A stretch of 64,000 nt of DNA. Origin: an uncultured cyanobacterium. GTDB taxonomy: Bacteria > Cyanobacteriota > Cyanobacteriia > Cyanobacteriales > CAWCAG01. A program made the translations under genes and the position numbers. The stretch lies in contig CAWDOD010000011.1 in the NCBI GenBank assembly GCA_963803805.1, forward strand, positions 32,001 to 96,000. The letters run 5' to 3'. Position 1 is the stretch's first letter. Each line of letters opens with the position of its first letter. Under the pieces are notes generated by a model. That model was not told where the DNA came from and searched no databases. It saw only the letters and a list, made by a program, of their open reading frames with translations. Positions 3,833 to 15,062 of this stretch are shown here, in pieces.

Positions 3833-4429
3833 TCAATCTAATTCTCTTCTTCCTTCTAATGCCCTTGCTAAGGTGACTTCATCGGCATATTCTAAATCTC
3901 CTCCCATGGGTAAACCAAAAGCAATACGAGTAACTTTGGTAAAAGGTTTTAATAATTGACCAATATAAAGGGTAGTAGTTTCTCCTTCTACACTGGGACC
4001 AATAGCCATAATTACTTCTTGAATGTGGGGTTGGCTAGCCCTTTGTACTAAAGGTTGTATATTTAATTGTTCTGGTCCAACGCCATCCATAGGAGAGATA
4101 ACCCCCCCTAAAACATGGTATTTACCACTGTATTCTCGTGTTTTTTCTAAGGCAATAACATCACGGGAATCTGTGACAACACAGATGATTTTATCATCTC
4201 GATTTTGGTTAGCACAAATGTTACAAACGGGTTCGGCGGAGAGATGGAAACAGACTCGACAAAAACCGACTTGCTTTTTTGCTTCTACTAAAGCTTGGGC
4301 AAGGGCATGGACATCTTGTTCCGGGCGTTTGAGGATATGAAGGGCTAATCTTTGGGCAGTTTTCGGCCCTACTCCAGGTAATTTCTGTAGTTGTTCGATT
4401 AATCTTGCTAAGGGAGGGGTGTAAACCAT
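3833..4429 (-). CDS. recR: recombination mediator RecR
   Basis: [13 protein letters not shown]hH, C4 zinc finger, Toprim domain, LEYADEVTL. Confidence 0.97.
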
Positions 4430-4459
4430 TTTTTAGTTATTATAAGGAAGCTATTAATT

Positions 4460-5425
4460 TGGTGCGATCGCTCCTTATATAAGTTAATAATACCAAGATC
4501 GTAGGGTGTGTTAGGCGGACCTGAAAAATGAGGTTAAATCCCAAAGCCTCCATCCGCCGTAACGCACCAATTCCCACCCCGTGGATTGTAGTTGTGGTGC
4601 GATCGCTCCTTATATAAGTTAATAATACCAAGATAGTAGGGTGTGTTAGGCGGGCCTGAAAAATGAGGTTAAATCCCAAAGCCTCCATCCGCCGTAACGC
4701 ACCAATTCCCACCCCGTGGATTGTAGTTGTGGTGCGATCGCTCCTTATATAAGTTAATAATACCAAGATAGTAGGGTGTGTTAGGCGGGCCTGAAAAATG
4801 AGGTTAAATCCAAAGCCTCCATCCGCCGTAACGCACCAATTCTCACCCCGTGGATTGTAGTTGTGGTGCGATCGCTCCTTATATAAGTTAATAATACCGA
4901 GATCGTAGGGTGTGTTAGGCAGACCTGAAAAATGAGGTGAAATCCCAAAGCCCCCATCCGCCGTAACGCACCAATTCTCACCCCGTGGATTGTAGTTGTG
5001 GTGCGATCGCTCCTTATAGGTAAGTTAATAATACCAAGATCGTAGGGTGTGTTAGGCGGACTTGAAAAATGAGGTGAAATCCCAAAGCCTCCATCCGCCG
5101 TAACGCACCAATTCCCACCCCGTGGATTGTAGTTGTGGTGCGATCGCTCCTTATAGGTAAGTTAATAATACCAAGATCGTAGGGTGTGTTAGGCGGACCT
5201 GAAAAATGAGGTGAAATCCAAAGCCTCCATCCGCCGTAACGCACCAATTCTTACCCTGGATTGTGGTTGTGGTGCGATCGCTTCTTATAGGTAAGTTAAT
5301 AATACCAAGATCGTAGGGTGTGTTAGGCGGACCTAAAAAATGAGGTTGAATCCAAAGCCTCCATCCGCCGTAACGCACCAATTCCCACCCCGTGGATTGT
5401 AGTTGTGGTGCGATCGCTCCTTATA
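4460..5425. repeat. tandem array of seven 134-137-bp units plus a partial eighth, each with HIP1 and a GTAG-led imperfect palindrome
   Basis: GGTGCGATCGCT(C/T)CTTATA recurs at 4461, 4596, 4731, 4865, 5000, 5137, 5271 and 5407; the intervening sequence is near-identical between units. Confidence 0.97.
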
Positions 5426-5870
5426 CTTTAAAAGCACACTACAAGTTTTGAGAACTAATCTTGTATATGAACAAAAAAATGTGGAAGCCACCAGCAAAAG
5501 CGCTTCCACAAAAAGTACCAAAACCTGAAGAGGTTGTTATGCATACCTTGTATCATGAGGCATTTGGGCTTTTTGGTCAGTGAGATAGGTACGTTAAAGA
5601 GGTGAGTTTTAGAAGCTAATTTGGTGAATTTTATCGGTATAAAGTATGACTGATTTAGGGGTTTTTTGTAATCTGAGTCACAAATTGGTGATTTTGCTAA
5701 TTGCTAGTGGCTAGGTGCTGACATTACAATTATCAAATTAGGAAACTATTACCTCAAATCTTCTCTCCATTTCCCCATCTCAATCTCAACATCTTTAGGG
5801 GGTGATAGCTTAAAGTAGTATTAGGGTTGACATCAAGCGAAAAGACGTTGTAATAAATATCCTTTGGTAG

Positions 5871-6239
5871 ATGCTAAATAAATTTTGGCAGTGGCTAAAA
5901 AATTTTTTCCGGCGTTGGTTTCCTCAACAAGTTGCGACACCAGTAGAGGAAAAACCGACTCCCCAGTTTAGTGATGCGGATTACGAACAGTTCTTTTTTG
6001 CCCTCCTGGATGGGGTGGTTGATGAAGGTTGGAGTCAGGGTAGTGTGAAGGGTTTTTTCTTGGCTAAAAAGCTTACGGTTGCAGAATTGGCGGTGTGGTT
6101 GCGGCGGTTTGGTGAGAGGTTGCAGGAGGCTGAGGTTGAACAAGAAGAGTTGAGGAAGCGATTGCTTAGGTTTGGGGAAAAGGGGGAGGAAGATTGTTTT
6201 TTTGCGGGAGTTGGTGGAGGTTGTGGGGGGGATTGGTAG
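5871..6239 (+). CDS. N-terminal segment of the TPR-CHAT protein, out of frame with the main ORF
   Basis: MLNKFWQWLKNFFRRWF amphipathic start resembles cyanobacterial TPR-CHAT N-termini; overlaps the next ORF, which is in the +1 frame. Confidence 0.6.
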   Translation: MLNKFWQWLKNFFRRWFPQQVATPVEEKPTPQFSDADYEQFFFALLDGVVDEGWSQGSVKGFFLAKKLTVAELAVWLRRFGERLQEAEVEQEELRKRLLRFGEKGEEDCFFAGVGGGCGGDW

Positions 6240-8874
6240 AGAAACTTCGCAGTCTTCTTCACAAGTCGAAGTAAGTTTGCCAGAGGGAGAAGATTGGGAT
6301 AATCAGGAGACTGATGATTTTTTGTCGAGAGGAGTTGCTGCATACCAGCAAGGAGACTATGAGACAGCAGCTAATTTGCTGCAACAAGCTACGGAGTTAA
6401 ATTCCCAGAGTTTTCAAGCTTGGGAAAAGTATGGCGTAGTTTTGCAGCAGTTAGGAAGATATACAGAGGCTATTGAAGCGAATAATCAGGCGTTGCAAAT
6501 TTCTGGGAAAACTCAAAACATAGAAGAAGTCATTAATACTAATCTTTCAAATACTGTCAATACTTTTAATCTTAGCCAGTCTAGTGTTCTTTTTCGCCCC
6601 CCGATAATTCAGACTAGCATGAGTTCAGAAGCAGAGTATGATTCTCAGGCAGTAGAGTTATTCAATCAAGGGTTGAATAAAGCCCAAGCAGGAGATTTTT
6701 TAGCAGCAATTCAGCTTTACACTAAAGTAATAGAAATTAATCCTGATTTATACCTAGCCTACGATAATCGGGGCCTTGCTCTGAGAGATTTAGGCAAGTA
6801 CGAAGAGGCCATTACCGATTTCACTAAAGCAATTGACATTCAACCTGATGACTACCAAGCCTACAATGGTCGCGGCGCTACCCTGAGTGATTTAGGCAGA
6901 TACGAAGAAGCGATCGCAGATTTCACTCAAGCTATCCAAATTAAACCTGACTTCTATCAAGCCTACGATAATCGCGGCGCTGTACTTTGTGATCACTTAG
7001 GAAAGTACAAAGAAGCGATAGCAGATTTTGAACGGGTTTTGGAAATTCAGCCTGAAAAATTTAGTGCTTGGAGAAATCGAGGTGTAGCTCTTGAGAACAG
7101 TGGAAACTATAAAACAGCGATCGCTAACTGGGACGAAGGATTAACCAAACTCAACCCAAAAGACAAAGAATATCAACTTGGTTGCGGCACATTGCATTGG
7201 ATGAAAGGTAATGCCCACTATAGACAAGCTACCAACCATTACCAATATCCCCTTTACCAAGAAGCCCTTGAAAGTTATCATCAAGCCCTAGACTTCCTCA
7301 AGGATAATCCCCGCAACCGAGAAACCTATCTAGAAGTATTAAAAGGATTAATCAAAACTTATCGCGCTACTCGTGATGAAGAAGAAGCTAAGACTTACGA
7401 AAACATAGCAGTCAATCTTTTAGAAAAACTCTTAAACGAAACTTCTCCTGGCTACAAGATAGTCTTGCTACGAAAATTCAGTGGCTTCTTTCAACTCAGG
7501 GTAGATCGTTTAGCCCGTTCCCAAGACATAGCTAAACAAAAAGAAGCCTTAGAACTAGCAGAAGCAAGAAAAAATATCTCCCTTGCTTGGTTGCAAGGGA
7601 AATCGAACAATAAACTACCGATTATTTGGCTACTAATTCGAGAAATCGATATAATAGCTGGCATTTTATTTCTGCACCAGATTCCTTCCCCCAACTATGA
7701 GGAAATGCAACAAATCTGGCCACAACTGCTACCCCAAACCGCCATCATCTACTGGCATCTCAGCCCCGTCTCCTTAACCACCTTCCTCCTCCTAGAAAAC
7801 CACTTCCAAACCTTCACCACCGACTTATCCCCCATCCTTTCGGAAGTTGAATTGAGGAAAGTAGACAGCAAAGATAACTTAGAAAACTGGTTAACCAACT
7901 GGAAGCAAACCTACAGCAACTACAGCAAAGCAGAAAACAGCAACGCTTGGCGAGAAACCTTACCCCAACAACTAGAAAAACTCGCCCACTTCCTCTCTAT
8001 TCCTACCCTGCAAGAAACACTGCAAACCCTGCAAGTTAAAAACCTAATCCTCATTCCCCACCGCGATTTACATTTGCTACCTCTCCACGCTTTGTTCCCG
8101 ACAAGTTATACTTTTTCTTATTTGCCTAGTATTAAGCAAGGGATAGGCACAAGTTCGGAGAAAGAAACAAGGGAAAAAGAATTAACCAACTTATTAAGTG
8201 TAGAATCTCCCGAAGGTAAGACCTCTTCTCTCTGGTTTACACCTGTAGAAGCGAAAGTGATTGCTAGCTTTTACCACAATTCAGAGAGTTTGCAGAAAAA
8301 GGAAGATGTCACAACAGCCTTAATCAACAACCCCGGAGACTTCCTGTTTACAGGGCATGGTTATCACAACTTCACCCAACCAGAAAAGTCTGCCCTCTTC
8401 TTAGTTGACGGGGAGTTGACTGTAGAGGAGATTTTTAAGTTAGAATTTCCTCCCCGCCATTTAGTAACCCTCTCTGCTTGCGAGACAGGCTTGACGGGAG
8501 ATAAGGAATTAATTGATGAATTTGTCAGTTTAGGTAGTGCTTTTCTGGCTAAGGGGGCGAGTTATATCATCACCAGTTTATGGCGAGTAGATGAACGGGC
8601 AACGGCTATTTTGCTGATGCGTTTTCACCAGTTGCTTCGGGACAGGGGGACGGTGGTAGCTTTTAATGAGGCGGTAAACTGGTTGAGAGATTTAGATCAG
8701 GGTAGCTTGGCTAATTGGTATCGCCAGTTAGCACAGGAGTTAGAGAGAAGAGGAAAAATCGAGTATGCTGACTTTGTTGAAGGTTTAGTAGAAACTATCG
8801 AAGATGAGGGGAATTTAACTTGTCCCTATCGCCATCCTTACTATTGGGCTGGTTTTACTATTACTGGAATTTAA
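6172..8874 (+). CDS. TPR-repeat + CHAT (caspase-like) protease
   Basis: multiple TPRs, LILIPHRDLHLLPLHAL, catalytic FTGHG and LSACETG, C-terminal HPYYWAGF. Confidence 0.9.
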   Translation: MGKRGRKIVFLRELVEVVGGIGRETSQSSSQVEVSLPEGEDWDNQETDDFLSRGVAAYQQGDYETAANLLQQATELNSQSFQAWEKYGVVLQQLGRYTEAIEANNQALQISGKTQNIEEVINTNLSNTVNTFNLSQSSVLFRPPIIQTSMSSEAEYDSQAVELFNQGLNKAQAGDFLAAIQLYTKVIEINPDLYLAYDNRGLALRDLGKYEEAITDFTKAIDIQPDDYQAYNGRGATLSDLGRYEEAIADFTQAIQIKPDFYQAYDNRGAVLCDHLGKYKEAIADFERVLEIQPEKFSAWRNRGVALENSGNYKTAIANWDEGLTKLNPKDKEYQLGCGTLHWMKGNAHYRQATNHYQYPLYQEALESYHQALDFLKDNPRNRETYLEVLKGLIKTYRATRDEEEAKTYENIAVNLLEKLLNETSPGYKIVLLRKFSGFFQLRVDRLARSQDIAKQKEALELAEARKNISLAWLQGKSNNKLPIIWLLIREIDIIAGILFLHQIPSPNYEEMQQIWPQLLPQTAIIYWHLSPVSLTTFLLLENHFQTFTTDLSPILSEVELRKVDSKDNLENWLTNWKQTYSNYSKAENSNAWRETLPQQLEKLAHFLSIPTLQETLQTLQVKNLILIPHRDLHLLPLHALFPTSYTFSYLPSIKQGIGTSSEKETREKELTNLLSVESPEGKTSSLWFTPVEAKVIASFYHNSESLQKKEDVTTALINNPGDFLFTGHGYHNFTQPEKSALFLVDGELTVEEIFKLEFPPRHLVTLSACETGLTGDKELIDEFVSLGSAFLAKGASYIITSLWRVDERATAILLMRFHQLLRDRGTVVAFNEAVNWLRDLDQGSLANWYRQLAQELERRGKIEYADFVEGLVETIEDEGNLTCPYRHPYYWAGFTITGI

Positions 8875-8885
8875 ATAATAAAATT

Positions 8886-9293
8886 ATGCAAGAATTAAAC
8901 TTAGACTCTGTACAAAAACTTACTTTAGTTAACTTTGTTGATGCTTTGGCTAATCTGGAAACCTCTATTCCTCCAGAAATGAAAACAGAGATTAATCACC
9001 TTGGTGTAGCTTTGCAAAAAGGAGATACAACAGCCGTAGGGAAATTAGTAAACGTTGCTAAACAGTTTGAACCGTTGCATAAGTTATATAAGGAGATTCG
9101 TTCTGAAAGACTAAAGGAGTATCAAAGCCAAGAATTAAATAAGGGCGACGCTGAGCGTCCACGGAAAAAGCTTATTTATATTGAAGAATCACATATACTC
9201 GATAATTATATTATATCTAGCCTAACTGCTTCAGAGCCAGCCAAAAAAGCCAAAGAAAAGCAAGAAGAAAGAAACAGTAAGAATATGGAATAA
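8886..9293 (+). CDS. small helical protein associated with the CHAT protease
   Basis: ATG at 8886, just after the CHAT stop (ORF track extends it to 8820); helical, charged C-terminus. Confidence 0.7.
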   Translation: MQELNLDSVQKLTLVNFVDALANLETSIPPEMKTEINHLGVALQKGDTTAVGKLVNVAKQFEPLHKLYKEIRSERLKEYQSQELNKGDAERPRKKLIYIEESHILDNYIISSLTASEPAKKAKEKQEERNSKNME

Positions 9294-9353
9294 TTCCTAT
9301 CATTCTATAATTAACTTCAGATTTTTCTGGTATTACAAAAGGGCAAACACTTT

Positions 9354-10712
9354 ATGAACGAAATTATCTATCCCTCTATTGATTTATTTCTCTACCAAAT
9401 TAGTTCAGGTTTAGGGGATAGCAAAGAAAAAATTAGCCAGAATCGCCAACAATTTCTCACTATTCTACCAGACAAATCAAAGGAACAATTATTAGAGATT
9501 TATTCAACAGAAGAAATTTCTGCTGAGAACAAATATCAAGAATTACTCAAAGATGAGATTTTTCCATTTAGAACAGAAATAAACAACTATCAACTAGAAG
9601 GTTATTACTATCCTGTACTTTTAAAAGATACTTATGGGTTGTTGTACAATTGTTCTGTTGATGAAAAAGACCAACCCCAAAAACTAAGCTGTCTACGTTA
9701 CCTTAAAGAAAAAGCCCCAGTCAATCAAAATCATGTAGGACAAACTTGGTTTGTTTCTGGTATGATTACACCTGACTTTTCAGGTAAAACAGAAGAATTA
9801 GCTAAGGAAATATATATCAACTTTTGGCAAGGAGAAGAAGAAGAAAAATTAACCAGGGAATGGTTTAGACACAAACGCTTAAAATTTTCTGATGCAGAAG
9901 TTTTTGAAGTTTGGCAACCACCGCAAAAGTGGGATGACATTAATCAAAATCGCCATATTCTCATTTTTTTATACCGCGATCGCAGCTTTTTGAAAAAAGT
10001 CCCTTATTTTCAACAAAACTGGTTAGAATTATGGTGCTATCGCAATAAAACCATCTTTACCTATCAACAAAGCCAGTTAACCAAGAAAGAACTCGAAAAA
10101 GGTTTTAAAACCATTCAAGATACTATTCCCATAGTTCAGCAAAAAACGGATTTGAATAGTCTACAAAAAGTTTTAAAAAATAATTTAGAAACCTTCTCCA
10201 AATACACTATTAATCTCAACTTTTTAGAAATACGAAGGCAAACTATTAACACGAACCTCCTTAACTACCAAGAGTATTGCAAGTACTTAAGTAAAGCTGC
10301 CCAACAAATGGGAGACACCCACCACGATTTACAAGCTTTAAACGATTTCGCAATCACAGTTAAAGAGAAATACCAAAAACAAGTAAACAAAGACTACGAA
10401 AGCCTCAAACCAGGCTTAGAAATCCTCTCTCACCTCACAGAAACTATCCGTGCCATCGTCGAAACAGAACAAGCCCAAGGAGAAAAGCGCTTAGAACATT
10501 TAGTCGCTTCTGTAGGTATCGGTTTAGGCACAGCAGCAATTGTTTCAGCAGCAGTACAAAACCCAGTAGAAGAAATAGTCAAATACCCAGAAAATCCTTT
10601 AACAGAAGCAGGTTGGCAGATACTTTTTATTATTATTGTTAGCGCTGTTTTTGGTTGTTTATTTAGTTGGTTAACCTGGCTTTTTAGAGCTAACTTCTTC
10701 AAAAAGCCTTAA
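9354..10712 (+). CDS. 452-aa protein: globular N-terminus, long coiled coil, two C-terminal TM helices
   Basis: IYPSIDLFLY start; heptad-rich middle; TM segments LVASVGIGLGTAAIVSAAV and ILFIIIVSAVFGCLFSWLTWLF. Confidence 0.75.
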   Translation: MNEIIYPSIDLFLYQISSGLGDSKEKISQNRQQFLTILPDKSKEQLLEIYSTEEISAENKYQELLKDEIFPFRTEINNYQLEGYYYPVLLKDTYGLLYNCSVDEKDQPQKLSCLRYLKEKAPVNQNHVGQTWFVSGMITPDFSGKTEELAKEIYINFWQGEEEEKLTREWFRHKRLKFSDAEVFEVWQPPQKWDDINQNRHILIFLYRDRSFLKKVPYFQQNWLELWCYRNKTIFTYQQSQLTKKELEKGFKTIQDTIPIVQQKTDLNSLQKVLKNNLETFSKYTINLNFLEIRRQTINTNLLNYQEYCKYLSKAAQQMGDTHHDLQALNDFAITVKEKYQKQVNKDYESLKPGLEILSHLTETIRAIVETEQAQGEKRLEHLVASVGIGLGTAAIVSAAVQNPVEEIVKYPENPLTEAGWQILFIIIVSAVFGCLFSWLTWLFRANFFKKP

Positions 10713-11240
10713 TACTTATCATACTAAATCTGCTTCATAAAGTGCCTCTATAAAACAACGGCAAAAAATGTCTCAAACCTTACTCCCTACTCCCAAAAGC
10801 AACATCTGCAACCAAACCGAATCGATATCAATTGAATAAAGCTATTTGCTCTTAGCTATTAACAAGCAACCTTTCCCACAACGAGCCTAAGTCCAAATGC
10901 GCCCTACCACCAACTCTAATTCCGACGATAGACCAACCCCAAATTAGCCAGCCAAACACAACTAACGAAGAGCGAAGCGGTTAGGAAGGGTTGTAGGGAA
11001 ACACTTGTTTCCCTGCTGGGGGGTCTGGGGGGCTAGTCCCCCAGTAAAGACTATAACGACCTACAGACCAACTAAAACAAGGAGCAACAAAAAAAGCAAT
11101 ACAAAAATGATTTATTTGTCGCATTATTTTTGCTATTTCATATAACTCTCTCTACAACACCAAACTTAATAAAAAAACTGTAGAGACATCAATTTATCAA
11201 CATCCCTACAGCTTTTAATATCAATTAGCTATTAGCTAAA

Positions 11241-12824
11241 CTAATTAATTTCCGGTGCTTGCAAAGAAATCATTTCTTGACTCTGTACCTCAACCGCAAT
11301 CGTTTCTACCAAAGAAGGAACTGAACTCCTTGCCCTAGCAGTTAACTGAGTCGTTGTCGCATCATAAATTTGGGTAACTAGCTTAGGATAAAAACCAATA
11401 CCAATAATGGGAACCAACAAAGAAGCAATAATAAATACTTCCCTGGGTTCGGCATCAATTAAAGCTTCATGGGATACCAACTCTTTGTTTTCTGGGCCAT
11501 AAAGTAATTCCCGTAACATAGAGAGGAGGTATATAGGAGTTAAAATCACTCCAACGGCGGCTAGAAAGACCACCAACACCTTGAAAGTGGGGTTATAGGC
11601 ATCGCTAGTGGCAAAGCCGACAAACACCATTAATTCCGCTACAAAACCACTCATTCCTGGCAAAGCTAAAGAGGCAAAGGAACAAGTCGTCCACATAGCA
11701 AAAACTTTCTTCATCCTTTGTCCTACTCCCCCCATTTCATCCAACATCAGGGTATGGGTACGGTCATAGGTGCAACCTACCATGAAAAATAAGCTTGCCC
11801 CAATTAATCCGTGGGAAATCATTTGTAACATCGCCCCACTGGTTCCTAATTCTGTAAAGGAACCCAAACCAATTAAAACAAAGCCCATGTGGGAAATGGA
11901 AGAGTAAGCGATTTTGCGCTTCAAATTACGTTGGGCAAAGGAGGTTAATGCCGCATAAACAATATTAACTACCCCCAGAATTACCAAAACCGGAGCAAAG
12001 ACAGCATGGGCATCGGGCAACATCCCCATATTCATCCGAAATAGGGCATAGCCTCCCATTTTTAACAAAATACCTGCCAGGAGCATATGGGCGGGGGCTG
12101 TGGCTTCACCGTGGGCATCTGGCAACCAGGTATGTAAAGGGAAGATGGGCAGTTTTACACCGTAGGCAATTAAGAATCCTCCATAAAGCAGTAATTGCAA
12201 ATTAAGAGGAATATCTTTAGCAGCGATCGCCTGCATATCAAAAGTTACGGTATCACCGTAAAACGCCATAGTTAAAGCGCCGACTAAAATAAACAGCGAT
12301 CCACCGGCGGTATAAAGAATAAACTTTGTGGCGGCATAAAGGCGTTTTTTCCCTCCCCAAATGGAGAGTATTAAGTAAACAGGAACTAATTCTAGTTCCC
12401 ATACTAAGAAAAACAGCAACATATCTTGAACAGCAAAGACAGCGATTTGACCGCCGTACATCGCCAACATCAAGAAGTAGAATAATCTCGGCTTGAAAGT
12501 AACAGGCCAAGCTGCCATTACCGCCAGGGTAGTGATAAAGCCCGTTAGGATAATCAGTGGCATGGCTAAACCATCAGCCCCCACTGACCACTTCAAATCA
12601 AGGGCAGGAACCCAGGAATAGCTTTCTACTAATTGCAATTCAGGATTAGCTAAGTCGTAACCATTGTAAAAAGCATAAACAATGACAATAAAGTCAATTA
12701 ATCCCACAATTAAGGCATACCACTTTACGGTTTTCCCGTCTCCTTTGTCAGGAACAAACGGAATCAGTAAAGCTGCTGCAATGGGAAAGAGAATAATCGT
12801 TGTTAGCCAAGGAAATTCTGTCAT
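11241..12824 (-). CDS. ndhD1: NAD(P)H-quinone oxidoreductase subunit 4 (NdhD1)
   Basis: [30 protein letters not shown]; downstream of ndhF1. Confidence 0.93.
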
Positions 12825-12989: not shown

Positions 12990-15062
12990 TTAGGTTACGC
13001 TTGAAACAACCACGAAGCCTAGTACCGCAGCAAAGATAATTAAAGCGTAAAATTGGGCGCGACCATTTTCTAGGTATTTCAAACCTTCACCACTAACAAT
13101 GGCAGCTAAACCCGTTAAATTAACCGCACCATCTACTACCCGGTAATCCACTTCCATAATTTGCCTTGCTAAGCGACGCAAACCTTTAACAAAGGCAACT
13201 TCGTAGATGTCGTTGAGATACCACTTATTAAGGGAGAAGTTGTAGAGAGGTTTGATTTTAGAGGCGATCGCCCCAGGATTAATAACTTTGCGGGAATACA
13301 TCAGTGAAGCCAGAGTGATACCAATTAAGGCAATACCCACAGAATTCCCTGCCATAATCAAAAACTCTGACCACTCAAAATGCGCTGCTTCTGCGACTGC
13401 TTCTGCGGCTGTTTCCGTGGGAGGATAGATAAATTCCTCAAAAGAGTTAGCCCAAGGGCGACCCAGCCAACCAATGAAAATTGAAGGGACAGCAAGAATG
13501 AGTAGAGGTAGAGTCATGGTTAAAGGAGACTCGTGGGGTTCGCTGCTATGGTGTTCACCATGGGTATCGTGGGCTTCTTCTGATTCTAGTTCCTTAACAT
13601 TCATTGCCCCAGGGCCAAAAGCAGGTTGAGGTGCAACTCCAGCTTCTGCTTTTAAAGAAGCACGAATGGCCATATCATTACCACGAAACTCGCCGCCAAA
13701 GGTGAGGAAATACATCCGGAACATATAAAAGGCAGTGATTCCGGCGGTTAACCAACCGATGAACCAAAGGGCTGGGTTAGCAAAGAAAGCACTACCGAGA
13801 ATTTCATCTTTTGACCAAAAACCAGCAAAGGGAGGAATGCCACAAATTGCTAAAGTCCCAACCAAGAAGGTTAGGTGAGTCATAGGCATATATTTACGCA
13901 AGTTACCCATTAACCGCATATCCTGGGCCAAAACTGGGTCATGACCAACAACGGCTTCCATGCCGTGAATTACTGACCCAGAACAAAGGAAAAGCATTGC
14001 TTTGAAGAAAGCATGGGTCATGAGGTGGAAAAGTCCTGCTGAGTAGGCTCCAATACCCATAGCCATAACCATATAACCTAACTGGGAAATGGTGGAGTAG
14101 GCTAAACCTTTTTTAATATCATTTTGGGTAATAGCGATGCTAGCCCCCAAAAAGGCTGTAAATGCTCCTGTCCAAGCAATGGTGTTCATGGCCACAGGAA
14201 TATCGGCAAATACAGGATACATCCTCGCTACCAGAAAAACTCCTGCTGCCACCATCGTGGCGGCGTGAATCAAAGCAGAAATTGGCGTAGGGCCTTCCAT
14301 GGCATCGGGAAGCCAAACATGGAGGGGAAATTGGGCTGACTTAGCTACCGGGCCTAGGAATACTAATACAGCGAATAGAGCAGCTAAACCGGCGGATAAA
14401 GCACCAGAAGTTACTAATTCTTGTAGGCGATCGCCCATAACTTCAAATTCAAAGCTGCCTGTAGCCCAATATAAACCGAGCATTCCTAGTAATAAGCCAA
14501 AGTCCCCTACCCTATTGGTCACAAATGCTTTTTGACAAGCATCAGCCGCCGCTTTGCGGTCGAACCAAAAACCAATTAGTAGATAGGAACACATTCCTAC
14601 CAATTCCCAGAAAATATAAATCTGGACGAGGTTTGGGCTAATAACCAAGCCCAACATTGAAGAACTAAATAAACTTAAATAGGCATAGAAACGTACATAA
14701 CCTGGGTCATGGGCCATATAACCATCGGTGTAGATCATCACCAAAAAGGCTACGGTGGTCACAACAACTAACATCAAGGCGGTGAGATGATCTATGGTAT
14801 AGCCCATGGCCAGATGAAAGCTTCCTGCTGCTGCCCATTCAAAAGTACGGGTAAAGGTTTCGTGACCGTGAATTTGACTCCACAGCAAAGCAAATGACAA
14901 AACCATTGCCGCTCCCAAGAGGGAGATAATAAATACAGCATTTATTTGCCGTAGACGATTAGTCGCATTACTGAAGGAGATTAAGCCTAGGCCAACCAAC
15001 ATTGCTCCGGCTAGGGGCAAAAGTGGAATCAACCAAGCGTACTGATAAAGCGGTTCCATCAC
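12990..15062 (-). CDS. ndhF1: NAD(P)H-quinone oxidoreductase subunit 5 (NdhF1)
   Basis: KSAQFPLHVWLPDAMEGPTPISALIHAATMV, THAFFKAMLF. Confidence 0.95.
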   Translation of the reverse strand: MMEPLYQYAWLIPLLPLAGAMLVGLGLISFSNATNRLRQINAVFIISLLGAAMVLSFALLWSQIHGHETFTRTFEWAAAGSFHLAMGYTIDHLTALMLVVVTTVAFLVMIYTDGYMAHDPGYVRFYAYLSLFSSSMLGLVISPNLVQIYIFWELVGMCSYLLIGFWFDRKAAADACQKAFVTNRVGDFGLLLGMLGLYWATGSFEFEVMGDRLQELVTSGALSAGLAALFAVLVFLGPVAKSAQFPLHVWLPDAMEGPTPISALIHAATMVAAGVFLVARMYPVFADIPVAMNTIAWTGAFTAFLGASIAITQNDIKKGLAYSTISQLGYMVMAMGIGAYSAGLFHLMTHAFFKAMLFLCSGSVIHGMEAVVGHDPVLAQDMRLMGNLRKYMPMTHLTFLVGTLAICGIPPFAGFWSKDEILGSAFFANPALWFIGWLTAGITAFYMFRMYFLTFGGEFRGNDMAIRASLKAEAGVAPQPAFGPGAMNVKELESEEAHDTHGEHHSSEPHESPLTMTLPLLILAVPSIFIGWLGRPWANSFEEFIYPPTETAAEAVAEAAHFEWSEFLIMAGNSVGIALIGITLASLMYSRKVINPGAIASKIKPLYNFSLNKWYLNDIYEVAFVKGLRRLARQIMEVDYRVVDGAVNLTGLAAIVSGEGLKYLENGRAQFYALIIFAAVLGFVVVSSVT

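Follow-up and report, generated by a model that had tools for sequence, protein, structure and literature searches.

A TPR-CHAT protease gene next to genes for a small helical protein and a CorA-shaped protein: a candidate protease-gated conflict system in cyanobacteria

The window analyzed here is a stretch of 64,000 nucleotides from an uncultured cyanobacterium (contig CAWDOD010000011.1 of GenBank assembly GCA_963803805.1, positions 32,001 to 96,000). Its subject is a trio of co-oriented genes on the plus strand at 5871-10712, encoding a protease with TPR repeats and a CHAT domain, a small helical protein (gene 2), and a CorA-shaped protein with two predicted transmembrane helices (gene 3). 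Judged by the comparison of related loci, the small protein and the CorA-shaped protein form a constant module, and the protease is the variable part. We give slightly better than even chances to the reading that this trio is a protease-gated membrane-effector conflict system, acting in programmed cell death or abortive infection. An earlier note, made from the letters of the DNA, had proposed a conflict system and likened it to CATRA; this was right in kind—a protease is indeed tied to a small and a CorA-shaped protein—and wrong in the family.

The three genes are tightly spaced, as had been described before, with gaps of 11 bp (8875-8885) between the protease gene and gene 2 and of 60 bp (9294-9353) between gene 2 and gene 3. 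In the 900-residue open reading frame (ORF) that covers most of the protease, Pfam finds CHAT with E 3.9e-35 and 122.1 bits against a gathering cut-off of 24, next to TPR_1 with E 1.4e-45 and several further TPR families. The catalytic His and Cys, which the earlier note had recognized in FTGHG and LSACETG, are kept and are invariant in all seven aligned CHAT homologues. The score above the gathering cut-off and the intact His-Cys dyad together mark the protein as a CHAT protease of clan CD.

The relatives of gene 3 show how constant this arrangement is. A word-indexed search alone gave 15 of them, which is an underestimate; searches by pattern and by hidden Markov model (HMM) gave larger sets. 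A pattern scan of GTDB species genomes yielded 269 relatives, nearly all of them cyanobacterial, and the best 80 of these are the loci analyzed here. A gene-3 profile searched against 1.84 billion representatives matched 992 at E<=0.001, 828 at E<=1e-10, and 561 at E<=1e-30. Among the best 150 of these 992, most are about 410-550 residues long and match end to end with no fused extra domains seen, and about ten are shorter (320-399 residues) with a partial profile match. The neighbors of gene 3 were classed by running HMMs on the ORFs of the 80 loci, built from the alignments of the small protein (A2) and of the gene-3 protein (A3), from 12 caspase N-termini, and from seven CHAT domains. With the CHAT domain of the window as a tblastn query, only about 11 protease neighbors were found; the caspase partners surfaced when the large neighboring genes were scanned with Pfam.

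In 64 of the 80 loci, a gene-2 relative lies directly upstream of gene 3 on the same strand and is accompanied by a gene for a protease of the caspase superfamily—a divergently oriented caspase-type gene in 56 loci and a co-oriented TPR-CHAT gene in eight. One further locus (L005) has the CHAT gene, with the small gene 986 bp off. The small gene alone is found in four loci, three of which have less than 1500 bp of contig upstream (the fourth is L033), and neither small gene nor protease is found in 11, three of them with less than 1500 bp upstream. Where at least 1500 bp of upstream sequence are available, 60 of 70 loci have both small gene and protease. The clear exceptions to the linkage are six loci of Floridaenema/Phormidium, taken up below, and L072 and L075, the latter with small gene and caspase gene 5.7-6.2 kb away. 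The window's own genome holds 26 CHAT-type and seven caspase-type ORFs in 5.3 Mb; with so few of them, the linkage of the trio lies far above chance. In many loci, the frames of the small gene and gene 3, taken from stop to stop, abut or overlap. The earlier note had named a lack of linkage between CHAT genes and genes 2 and 3 elsewhere as grounds for giving up its interpretation. The linkage to a protease is found, but CHAT accounts for only eight cases (nine with L005) and the caspase type for 56.

Peptidase_C14 is matched by the N-terminus of each of the 12 large divergent genes examined, and His and Cys are invariant in all 12 caspase-type partner sequences. Among 20 neighbors scanned with Pfam, 13 combine nSTAND1 with WD40, one (L037) combines Peptidase_C14, NB-ARC, and TPR, and two are TPR-CHAT. 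A tree of gene 3, calculated from the window and 75 loci (without five loci whose gene-3 ORFs are split or short), separates a caspase-STAND side of 55 rows from a side of 21 rows, which comprises all CHAT-linked copies, the pair L037/L054, and a clade of orphans. On this tree, the partner label changes four times compared with a mean of 17.1 after shuffling, and none of 200 shuffles came out as low; this clustering is not proof of co-evolution, because kin share labels. One locus with the full set of caspase gene, small gene, and gene 3 (L032) stems from a contig labeled as an uncultured Acetobacteraceae metagenome-assembled genome. Its gene 3 nests among those of Nostoc, and the contig is probably mis-binned cyanobacterial DNA.

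The gene-3 family is distributed patchily and in multiple copies (22 of 40 relatives, with up to eight matches in one genome); relatives occur in 47 of 301 cyanobacterial genomes, and many are fragments with stop codons. In Crocosphaera watsonii WH 8501 (L033), a DDE transposase at 6047-7531 of the locus (DDE_Tnp_1_4, E 3.6e-153) sits between the pair and the caspase gene, which itself lies in pieces 2.6-2.8 kb away. This patchy, multi-copy, and often decayed distribution—together with the transposase insertion and a remnant of the locus in a sister species—is behavior that speaks for a conflict system.

Gene 3 encodes the putative membrane effector. In its AlphaFold2 model, a beta-rich alpha/beta domain (residues 1-215) is followed by four long helices (216-375) and two C-terminal helices, which coincide with the only hydrophobic segments of the protein by hydropathy; loops at 376-416 are modeled with low confidence. 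The first of these segments contains G388 and G390, which are nearly invariant in the gene-3 family alignments. Model and hydropathy together thus give the layout of the CorA/MIT proteins—an alpha/beta domain, a long stalk, and two C-terminal transmembrane helices—which is also that of ZntB and Mrs2, and they bear out the soluble domain, stalk, and two terminal helices of the earlier note. The top PDB rows of a Foldseek search are all CorA, with a best E of 2.5e-3, prob 0.98, TM scores of 0.23-0.28, and a root mean square deviation (rmsd) of about 25, which for the predicted structure means similar pieces in a different overall pose. A VIA search has CorA, ZntB, and Mrs2 at or close to the top, with Z 10.0-10.2 for C. 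jejuni CorA (118 aligned residues and rmsd 2.7 at Z 10.2), 9.9 for E. coli CorA, 9.9 for ZntB, and 9.3 for Mrs2, and an Atlas search returns unnamed cyanobacterial clusters and one archaeal MJ1566_N cluster at 0.92. Going by the model, gene 3 is CorA-like with moderate scores, and its membership in the CorA superfamily is unproven.

For gene 2, the AlphaFold2 model agrees with the helical protein with a charged tail that had been noted earlier. It consists of a four-helix N-domain (residues 8-84), a disordered loop of low confidence (85-100), and two C-terminal helices (101-133), and the last 49 residues contain ten Lys and Arg and ten Asp and Glu. The small protein has no fold match (best E 3.3 in Foldseek, best Z 4.8 in VIA), the profile of alignment A2 finds noise only among PDB sequences, and the Atlas search of the small protein gives only unnamed clusters at 0.90 or less. 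A likeness to death folds—namely to bacterial CARD, FADD, and NOD1 chains—was dropped, as an E of 6.7 and Z of 3.3-3.7 are too weak. Elsewhere in the same genome, an orphan paralogue of the small protein is encoded on the minus strand (C8:60757-61149, 130 residues, family HMM E 1.5e-9), with no gene-3 relative adjoining.

Across alignment A2 (48 sequences), a near-invariant Gly opens the loop at 85-100. The residue before this conserved G/A column is Lys or Arg in 74 of 78 small proteins, with 62 cases of [KR]-G and six of R-A. Small proteins linked to CHAT mostly bear an acidic residue three places before the Lys (E/D-x-x-K), a pattern that we take to resemble the separase consensus. Two of the four exceptions to the motif, L037 and L054 of Microcoleus, read F-G; apart from this pair, the CHAT side of the gene-3 tree has no row linked to a caspase. 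The protease of L037, which was scanned with Pfam, is caspase-NB-ARC-TPR and not nSTAND1-WD40, and L054 is paired with it on the tree only. To judge from these sequences, protease and cut site may have changed in step with each other. Orthocaspases are described to cleave after basic residues (PMC6426788). Because of this preference, and because the conserved basic-Gly motif opens a disordered loop, we propose the bond between K86 and G87 as the likely cleavage site of the small protein. The earlier proposal that the protease cuts the small protein hence gains a conserved motif in a suitable loop; the cut itself is something we infer. When the proteins of gene 3 (A3) and gene 2 (A2) were modeled as a complex, without controls, the score was 0.00 compared with a mark of 0.32, which counts neither for nor against binding.

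In the mechanism that we favor, the repeat domain—TPR in the window—would sense a trigger, upon which the His/Cys protease, whose dyad is intact, would be switched on. The protease would then cut the small protein after a basic residue, K86, in an exposed linker. This cut is expected to free or alter the hold of the small protein on the CorA-like protein, which might then pass ions or disrupt the membrane, leading to arrest or death. The sensor-protease would be exchangeable, being TPR-CHAT here and in relatives mostly caspase-nSTAND1-WD40 ("Apaf-1-like"), or caspase-NB-ARC-TPR. More tentatively, and at clearly less than even chances, the small protein and the CorA-shaped protein might be the downstream death effector of caspase-STAND-WD40 proteins and of a TPR-CHAT clade, with a caspase-type cut at a basic residue gating a channel of the CorA superfamily.

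Several described systems come close to this picture. In the type III-E Craspase, the TPR-CHAT protease Csx29 cuts its neighbor Csx30 and a response is thereby started. The trio likewise places a TPR-CHAT protease beside a candidate substrate, and its protease partially matches Csx29 (NCBIfam, E 1.5e-24); this match to model NF041237 reaches 86.9 bits against a cut-off of 300 and spans residues 568-811 only. Unlike in Craspase, the candidate substrate is unrelated to Csx30, and no CRISPR-associated family is among the Pfam matches of ORFs of at least 110 residues in positions 1-26000 of the window. Pfam also holds models for the EACC1, Pepco/Trypco, and gasdermin families. Neither gene 2 nor gene 3 has a profile match to these described protease-associated small effectors in Pfam, NCBIfam, or PADLOC.

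In the EACC1 and Pepco modules, a sensor-fused protease cuts a small neighbor at one site and a membrane-active or pore form is released, as shown experimentally (Evans et al. 2025 preprint, 10.1101/2025.11.14.688446), and the proteases of these modules, caspase-like or other, are fused to varied sensors such as STAND/Avs or repeats. The trio is similar to these modules in that a small nonenzymatic protein stands beside a protease, and in that exchangeable sensors are combined with an unchanging module. In contrast to them, the module here consists of two proteins—one of 135 residues and helical, one of 452 residues, CorA-shaped and with two transmembrane helices—which have no Pfam match at E<=0.1. 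None of the ten module families presented in the pertinent part of 10.1101/2025.11.14.688446 corresponds to this pair. A CorA-family protein is described as a membrane effector in type III CRISPR defense (PMC10600005, PMC12255297); unlike there, activation of gene 3 is proposed to occur via proteolysis of a partner and not via a nucleotide signal. Cyanobacterial caspase-STAND-WD40 proteins have been called the "closest Apaf-1 homologues" in a 2026 Nature paper (PMC13581612), which in its pertinent sections names no substrate or downstream effector for them. It is precisely this architecture that the partner of the gene-2/gene-3 pair usually shows, whereas the window's own protease is TPR-CHAT. 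By its genomic linkage, the pair is a candidate substrate and effector of these caspase-STAND-WD40 proteins.

The reading as a conflict system has to be weighed against a number of observations. The proposed system is known from genes and models alone, and neither gene 2 nor gene 3 matches a family in PADLOC, Pfam, or NCBIfam; in Pfam, the same holds for 48 relatives of the small protein, and the scan of gene 3 and 62 relatives gave sub-threshold noise only (E<=0.1). GMN is the selectivity motif of CorA. It is missing from the window protein, as the earlier note had remarked, and was found in none of 62 family members within the last 120 residues. Pfam detects no CorA sequence signal in the protein or these 62 relatives, and the A3 profile finds coiled-coil noise at E>=0.41 and no CorA chain among PDB sequences. 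The VIA alignments with CorA mainly cover the stalk (residues 235-375), and their scores, Z 8-10.2 overall, are tied with those of spectrin, SNARE, and designed bundles. The CorA likeness claimed at first hence stands for the layout and for CorA, ZntB, and Mrs2 as best fold matches; a sequence match is missing, and the Z scores are shared with helical bundles. Cutting after a basic residue is established for orthocaspases, and not for CHAT. A clade of seven orphan copies in Floridaenema/Phormidium (L006, L008, L009, L010, L012, L016, and L014) has neither small gene nor protease, which implies that the gene-3 protein can persist alone. Also, the trio lies outside any defense island, as its neighbors within 26 kb are housekeeping genes. 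Finally, the protease gene is frameshifted (+1, at a G5 run) in the assembly.

This frameshift had been overlooked when the protease was first taken to start at 5871 in one ORF; 5871 opens an ORF of 122 residues in another frame, which overlaps the 900-residue ORF at the G5 run. With four instead of five G, 105 codons from 5871 and 895 codons ending at 8871 form a single ORF of 1000 residues. The 122-residue ORF shares 89% DNA identity with the remnant in the sister species (genome G001 of the same genus), where one ORF leads from the N-domain directly into '...FGEAGRRIAFLRELVEVVGEI...' and the TPRs. In locus L077, the N-domain is fused to TPR-CHAT in one protein. A contig of the public metagenome run X1 is shorter by a single base at 6182, at a depth of 6.56 of 12.2, and this difference goes together with 6144 G>A. 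Because of this remnant, this fusion, and this contig, we regard the one-frame protease of 1000 residues as the real architecture. Run X1 is maybe the sample behind the assembly, has zero cover in bin 7922-8115, and the G4 and G5 forms are each known from single contigs. The frameshift may be an assembly error, a difference between two strains, or slippage, each of which fits the data. With a split protease gene, the system may be off, N-terminally truncated, or variable from cell to cell. One X1 contig also bears an AGG insertion after 9829 in gene 3 (depth 3.5), an in-frame codon difference of a related strain.

The 122-residue N-terminal domain has no match in Pfam, NCBIfam, or PADLOC. A paralogue of it forms a stand-alone ORF on the minus strand of the same genome (C2:326706-327377, phmmer E 7.4e-14), with 224 residues from stop to stop and about 205 from the first Met. 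The domain may be a recurrent cyanobacterial adaptor module.

Table 1. Features of the trio and its surroundings in the window (positions are those of the window; pLDDT, predicted local distance difference test; pTM, predicted template modeling score; aa, amino acids)
Feature	Position	Strand	Evidence or remark
N-terminal domain ORF of the TPR-CHAT protein, 122 aa	5871-6239	+	Other frame than the rest of the gene
TPR-CHAT protease ORF, 900 aa from a TTG	6172-8874	+	TPRs at about residues 40-360; CHAT at 601-899
G5 homopolymer, frameshift site splitting the TPR-CHAT gene	6182-6186	+	
Catalytic His codon, residue 729 of the 900-aa ORF, FTGHG	8356-8358	+	Invariant in 7/7 aligned CHAT homologues
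Catalytic Cys codon, residue 770, LSACETG	8479-8481	+	Invariant in 7/7 aligned CHAT homologues
Small helical protein (gene 2), 135 aa	8886-9293	+	AlphaFold2 mean pLDDT 81.6, pTM 0.78
K86-G87 codons, basic-Gly motif (ELNK86-G87), candidate protease cleavage site	9141-9146	+	
CorA-shaped protein (gene 3), 452 aa, putative membrane effector	9354-10712	+	AlphaFold2 mean pLDDT 87.2, pTM 0.82
First hydrophobic segment, about residues 383-401, Gly/Ala-rich VGIGLGTAA	10500-10556	+	Hydropathy
Second hydrophobic segment, about residues 419-446	10608-10691	+	Hydropathy; model helix 418-449
RecR	3833-4429	-	TIGR00615, 273.8 bits vs cut-off 162.55
Tandem array, 135-bp unit, 7.1 copies	4460-5425		95% matches; holds GCGATCGC palindrome
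Dispersed repeat, about 270 bp, between gene 3 and ndhD	about 10880-11150		Copies on 5 other contigs of the same genome
NdhD (NAD(P)H-quinone oxidoreductase subunit 4)	11241-12824	-	Above NCBIfam cut-off
NdhF	12990-15062	-	Above NCBIfam cut-off

The frameshift invites the view that the locus is a decaying, nonfunctional relic in the window's strain, which is unlikely and still has to be reckoned with. Decay is documented in relatives: the sister species keeps only about 1 kb of fused fragments (L093, G001:C9 8853-9851), in which the N-domain is left together with parts of the TPRs, part of CHAT, and approximately the last 100 residues of gene 3. These are arranged as a 244-residue in-frame ORF of N-domain and TPRs and a 107-residue ORF in which a CHAT fragment is joined to the two transmembrane helices of gene 3, flanked by RNase J-like and release-factor-2-like genes (named by eye from their translations), that is, at another genomic place. 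Fragments bearing stop codons are also common in other genomes. In the window, on the contrary, the frames of genes 2 and 3 are uninterrupted, and so is the 900-residue ORF, which contains every TPR and the complete CHAT domain. Given the in-frame G4 form in run X1, the shift could stem from faulty assembly, from a difference between strains, or from slippage that is reversible.

HetF is a CHAT protease with a role in cell differentiation. The trio might correspondingly be a physiological or developmental regulator, in which processing of the small protein tunes a CorA-like ion channel for divalent-cation homeostasis, for CO2- or NDH-linked homeostasis, or for differentiation; we consider this improbable. 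The housekeeping neighbors, the missing PADLOC match, and the resemblance of the gene-3 fold to a family of Mg and Zn channels would suit such a role. So would the orphan clade, which nests inside the CHAT-linked side of the tree: in six of its loci, gene 3 (about 7971-9350) comes right after co-oriented genes for an NdhD-like protein (Proton_antipo_M; ndhD3) and for ChpXY of CO2 hydration. A regulator is at odds with the patchy, multi-copy occurrence of the family (47 of 301 genomes, up to eight matches in one), with frequent pseudogenized copies and a sister species retaining a decayed remnant only, and with the absence of the CorA selectivity motif from all 62 members. Moreover, the usual partner is a sensor of the STAND-WD40 type, which is classed as defense-associated in the pertinent part of PMC13581612.

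Within the conflict-system reading itself, the substrate could be another one. Proteolysis might hit the CorA-like protein directly, with a gasdermin-like release of its transmembrane part, or many proteins of the cell, and the small protein would then act as adaptor, inhibitor, or chaperone. Prokaryotic caspases of broad specificity provide a precedent, with PCaspase as the example (10.1101/2025.11.14.688446). The constant adjacency of the small gene and gene 3, with frames that often abut or overlap, fits a stable complex, and the low-confidence loops at 376-416 of gene 3 also count in favor of this variant. Against this stands that the sole family-wide basic-Gly motif in a disordered loop is that of the small protein, and that by eye no comparably conserved exposed basic site is seen in the gene-3 alignments. 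We assign this variant little probability.

CATRA ternary systems were reportedly introduced by Burroughs and Aravind in 2020. The main text of PMC7159879 does not use the term. Elsewhere, CATRA is spelled out as "Caspase and TPR repeat-associated" (PMC12657218; 10.64898/2026.08.12.744502) and described as a caspase-dependent ternary conflict system (PMC8195603) of restricted phyletic range (PMC8195603, PMC12657218), and CATASP is the "CATRA-associated small protein," an uncharacterized module associated with a protease (10.1101/2025.11.14.688446). The protease of the trio would pass as that of a CATRA system, since it combines a caspase-superfamily domain (CHAT, E 3.9e-35) with TPR families, and the gross layout—a caspase-TPR protein, a small protein, and a third protein—is the same. 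The direct test is the hmmscan with the Pfam models CATRA-N (PF20269), CATRA-C (PF20270), and CATASP (PF20271). At E<=0.1, none of the three models matches any protein of the trio, and none is among the families listed for 48 relatives of gene 2 and 62 of gene 3. In scans in which no positive control gave a match, and hence of little weight, the three models were also not found in the window's own genome in six frames, and CATASP was found in none of 301 cyanobacterial genomes, 47 of which hold gene-3 relatives. Leaving remote homology aside, the trio was not filed as CATRA, and the likeness drawn in the earlier note falls. Unlike CATRA, most relatives of the trio use caspase-STAND-WD40 and not caspase-TPR. 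A remote kinship of gene 2 to CATASP and of gene 3 to CATRA-N/CATRA-C is very unlikely, given these missing matches and the one constant gene-3 architecture among the best 150 of 992 representatives.

No description of the small/CorA-shaped module was found in the main texts of the literature on CATASP, CATRA, CorA with caspase, orthocaspases, and caspase-like proteins with STAND, a scope from which the papers defining CATRA and CATASP were left out. The two-protein effector module seems to be undescribed. Activation of effectors by proteases is coming to be seen as a central principle of bacterial immunity, and few effector families have been worked out. The trio would add a further sizeable module, with 992 representative clusters, a presence in 47 of 301 cyanobacterial genomes, and both proteins without family assignment. 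Its predicted substrate with a candidate cut site and its candidate executioner allow for asking what the Apaf-1-like caspase cuts and how the cell dies. If the conflict-system reading is true, it would extend the CorA fold as a defense effector beyond the SAM-AMP case of CRISPR. The more tentative reading, in which the pair is the downstream death effector of caspase-STAND-WD40 proteins and of a TPR-CHAT clade, would in addition provide the first proteolytically gated member of the CorA channel superfamily and a bacterial pathway of sensor, caspase, and membrane executioner made from parts unrelated to gasdermin.

The surroundings of the trio are as the earlier note had placed them, between recR and ndhD and with repeats on both sides. 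Further genes within 26 kb encode YtxH, ROK, S1, thioredoxin, NnrU, LysR, a kinase, a pentapeptide protein, TrkA/TrkH, and a hydrolase. An Rfam scan of 4000-11600 gave nothing at E<=0.01, and promoter and terminator predictions did not exceed those in shuffled sequence (11 compared with a mean of 11.5, and three compared with a mean of 5.3). The long minus-strand ORFs across the 135-bp array are probably repeat artifacts. Other contigs of the same genome (C10, C8, C5, and C7) carry related arrays, whose period is about 131 bp. The dispersed repeat downstream of gene 3 has 16 blastn matches on six contigs at 78-91% identity, the query itself counted, and a summed contig depth of 175 in run X1 compared with about 4-9 in its flanks. 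It looks like a miniature inverted-repeat transposable element.

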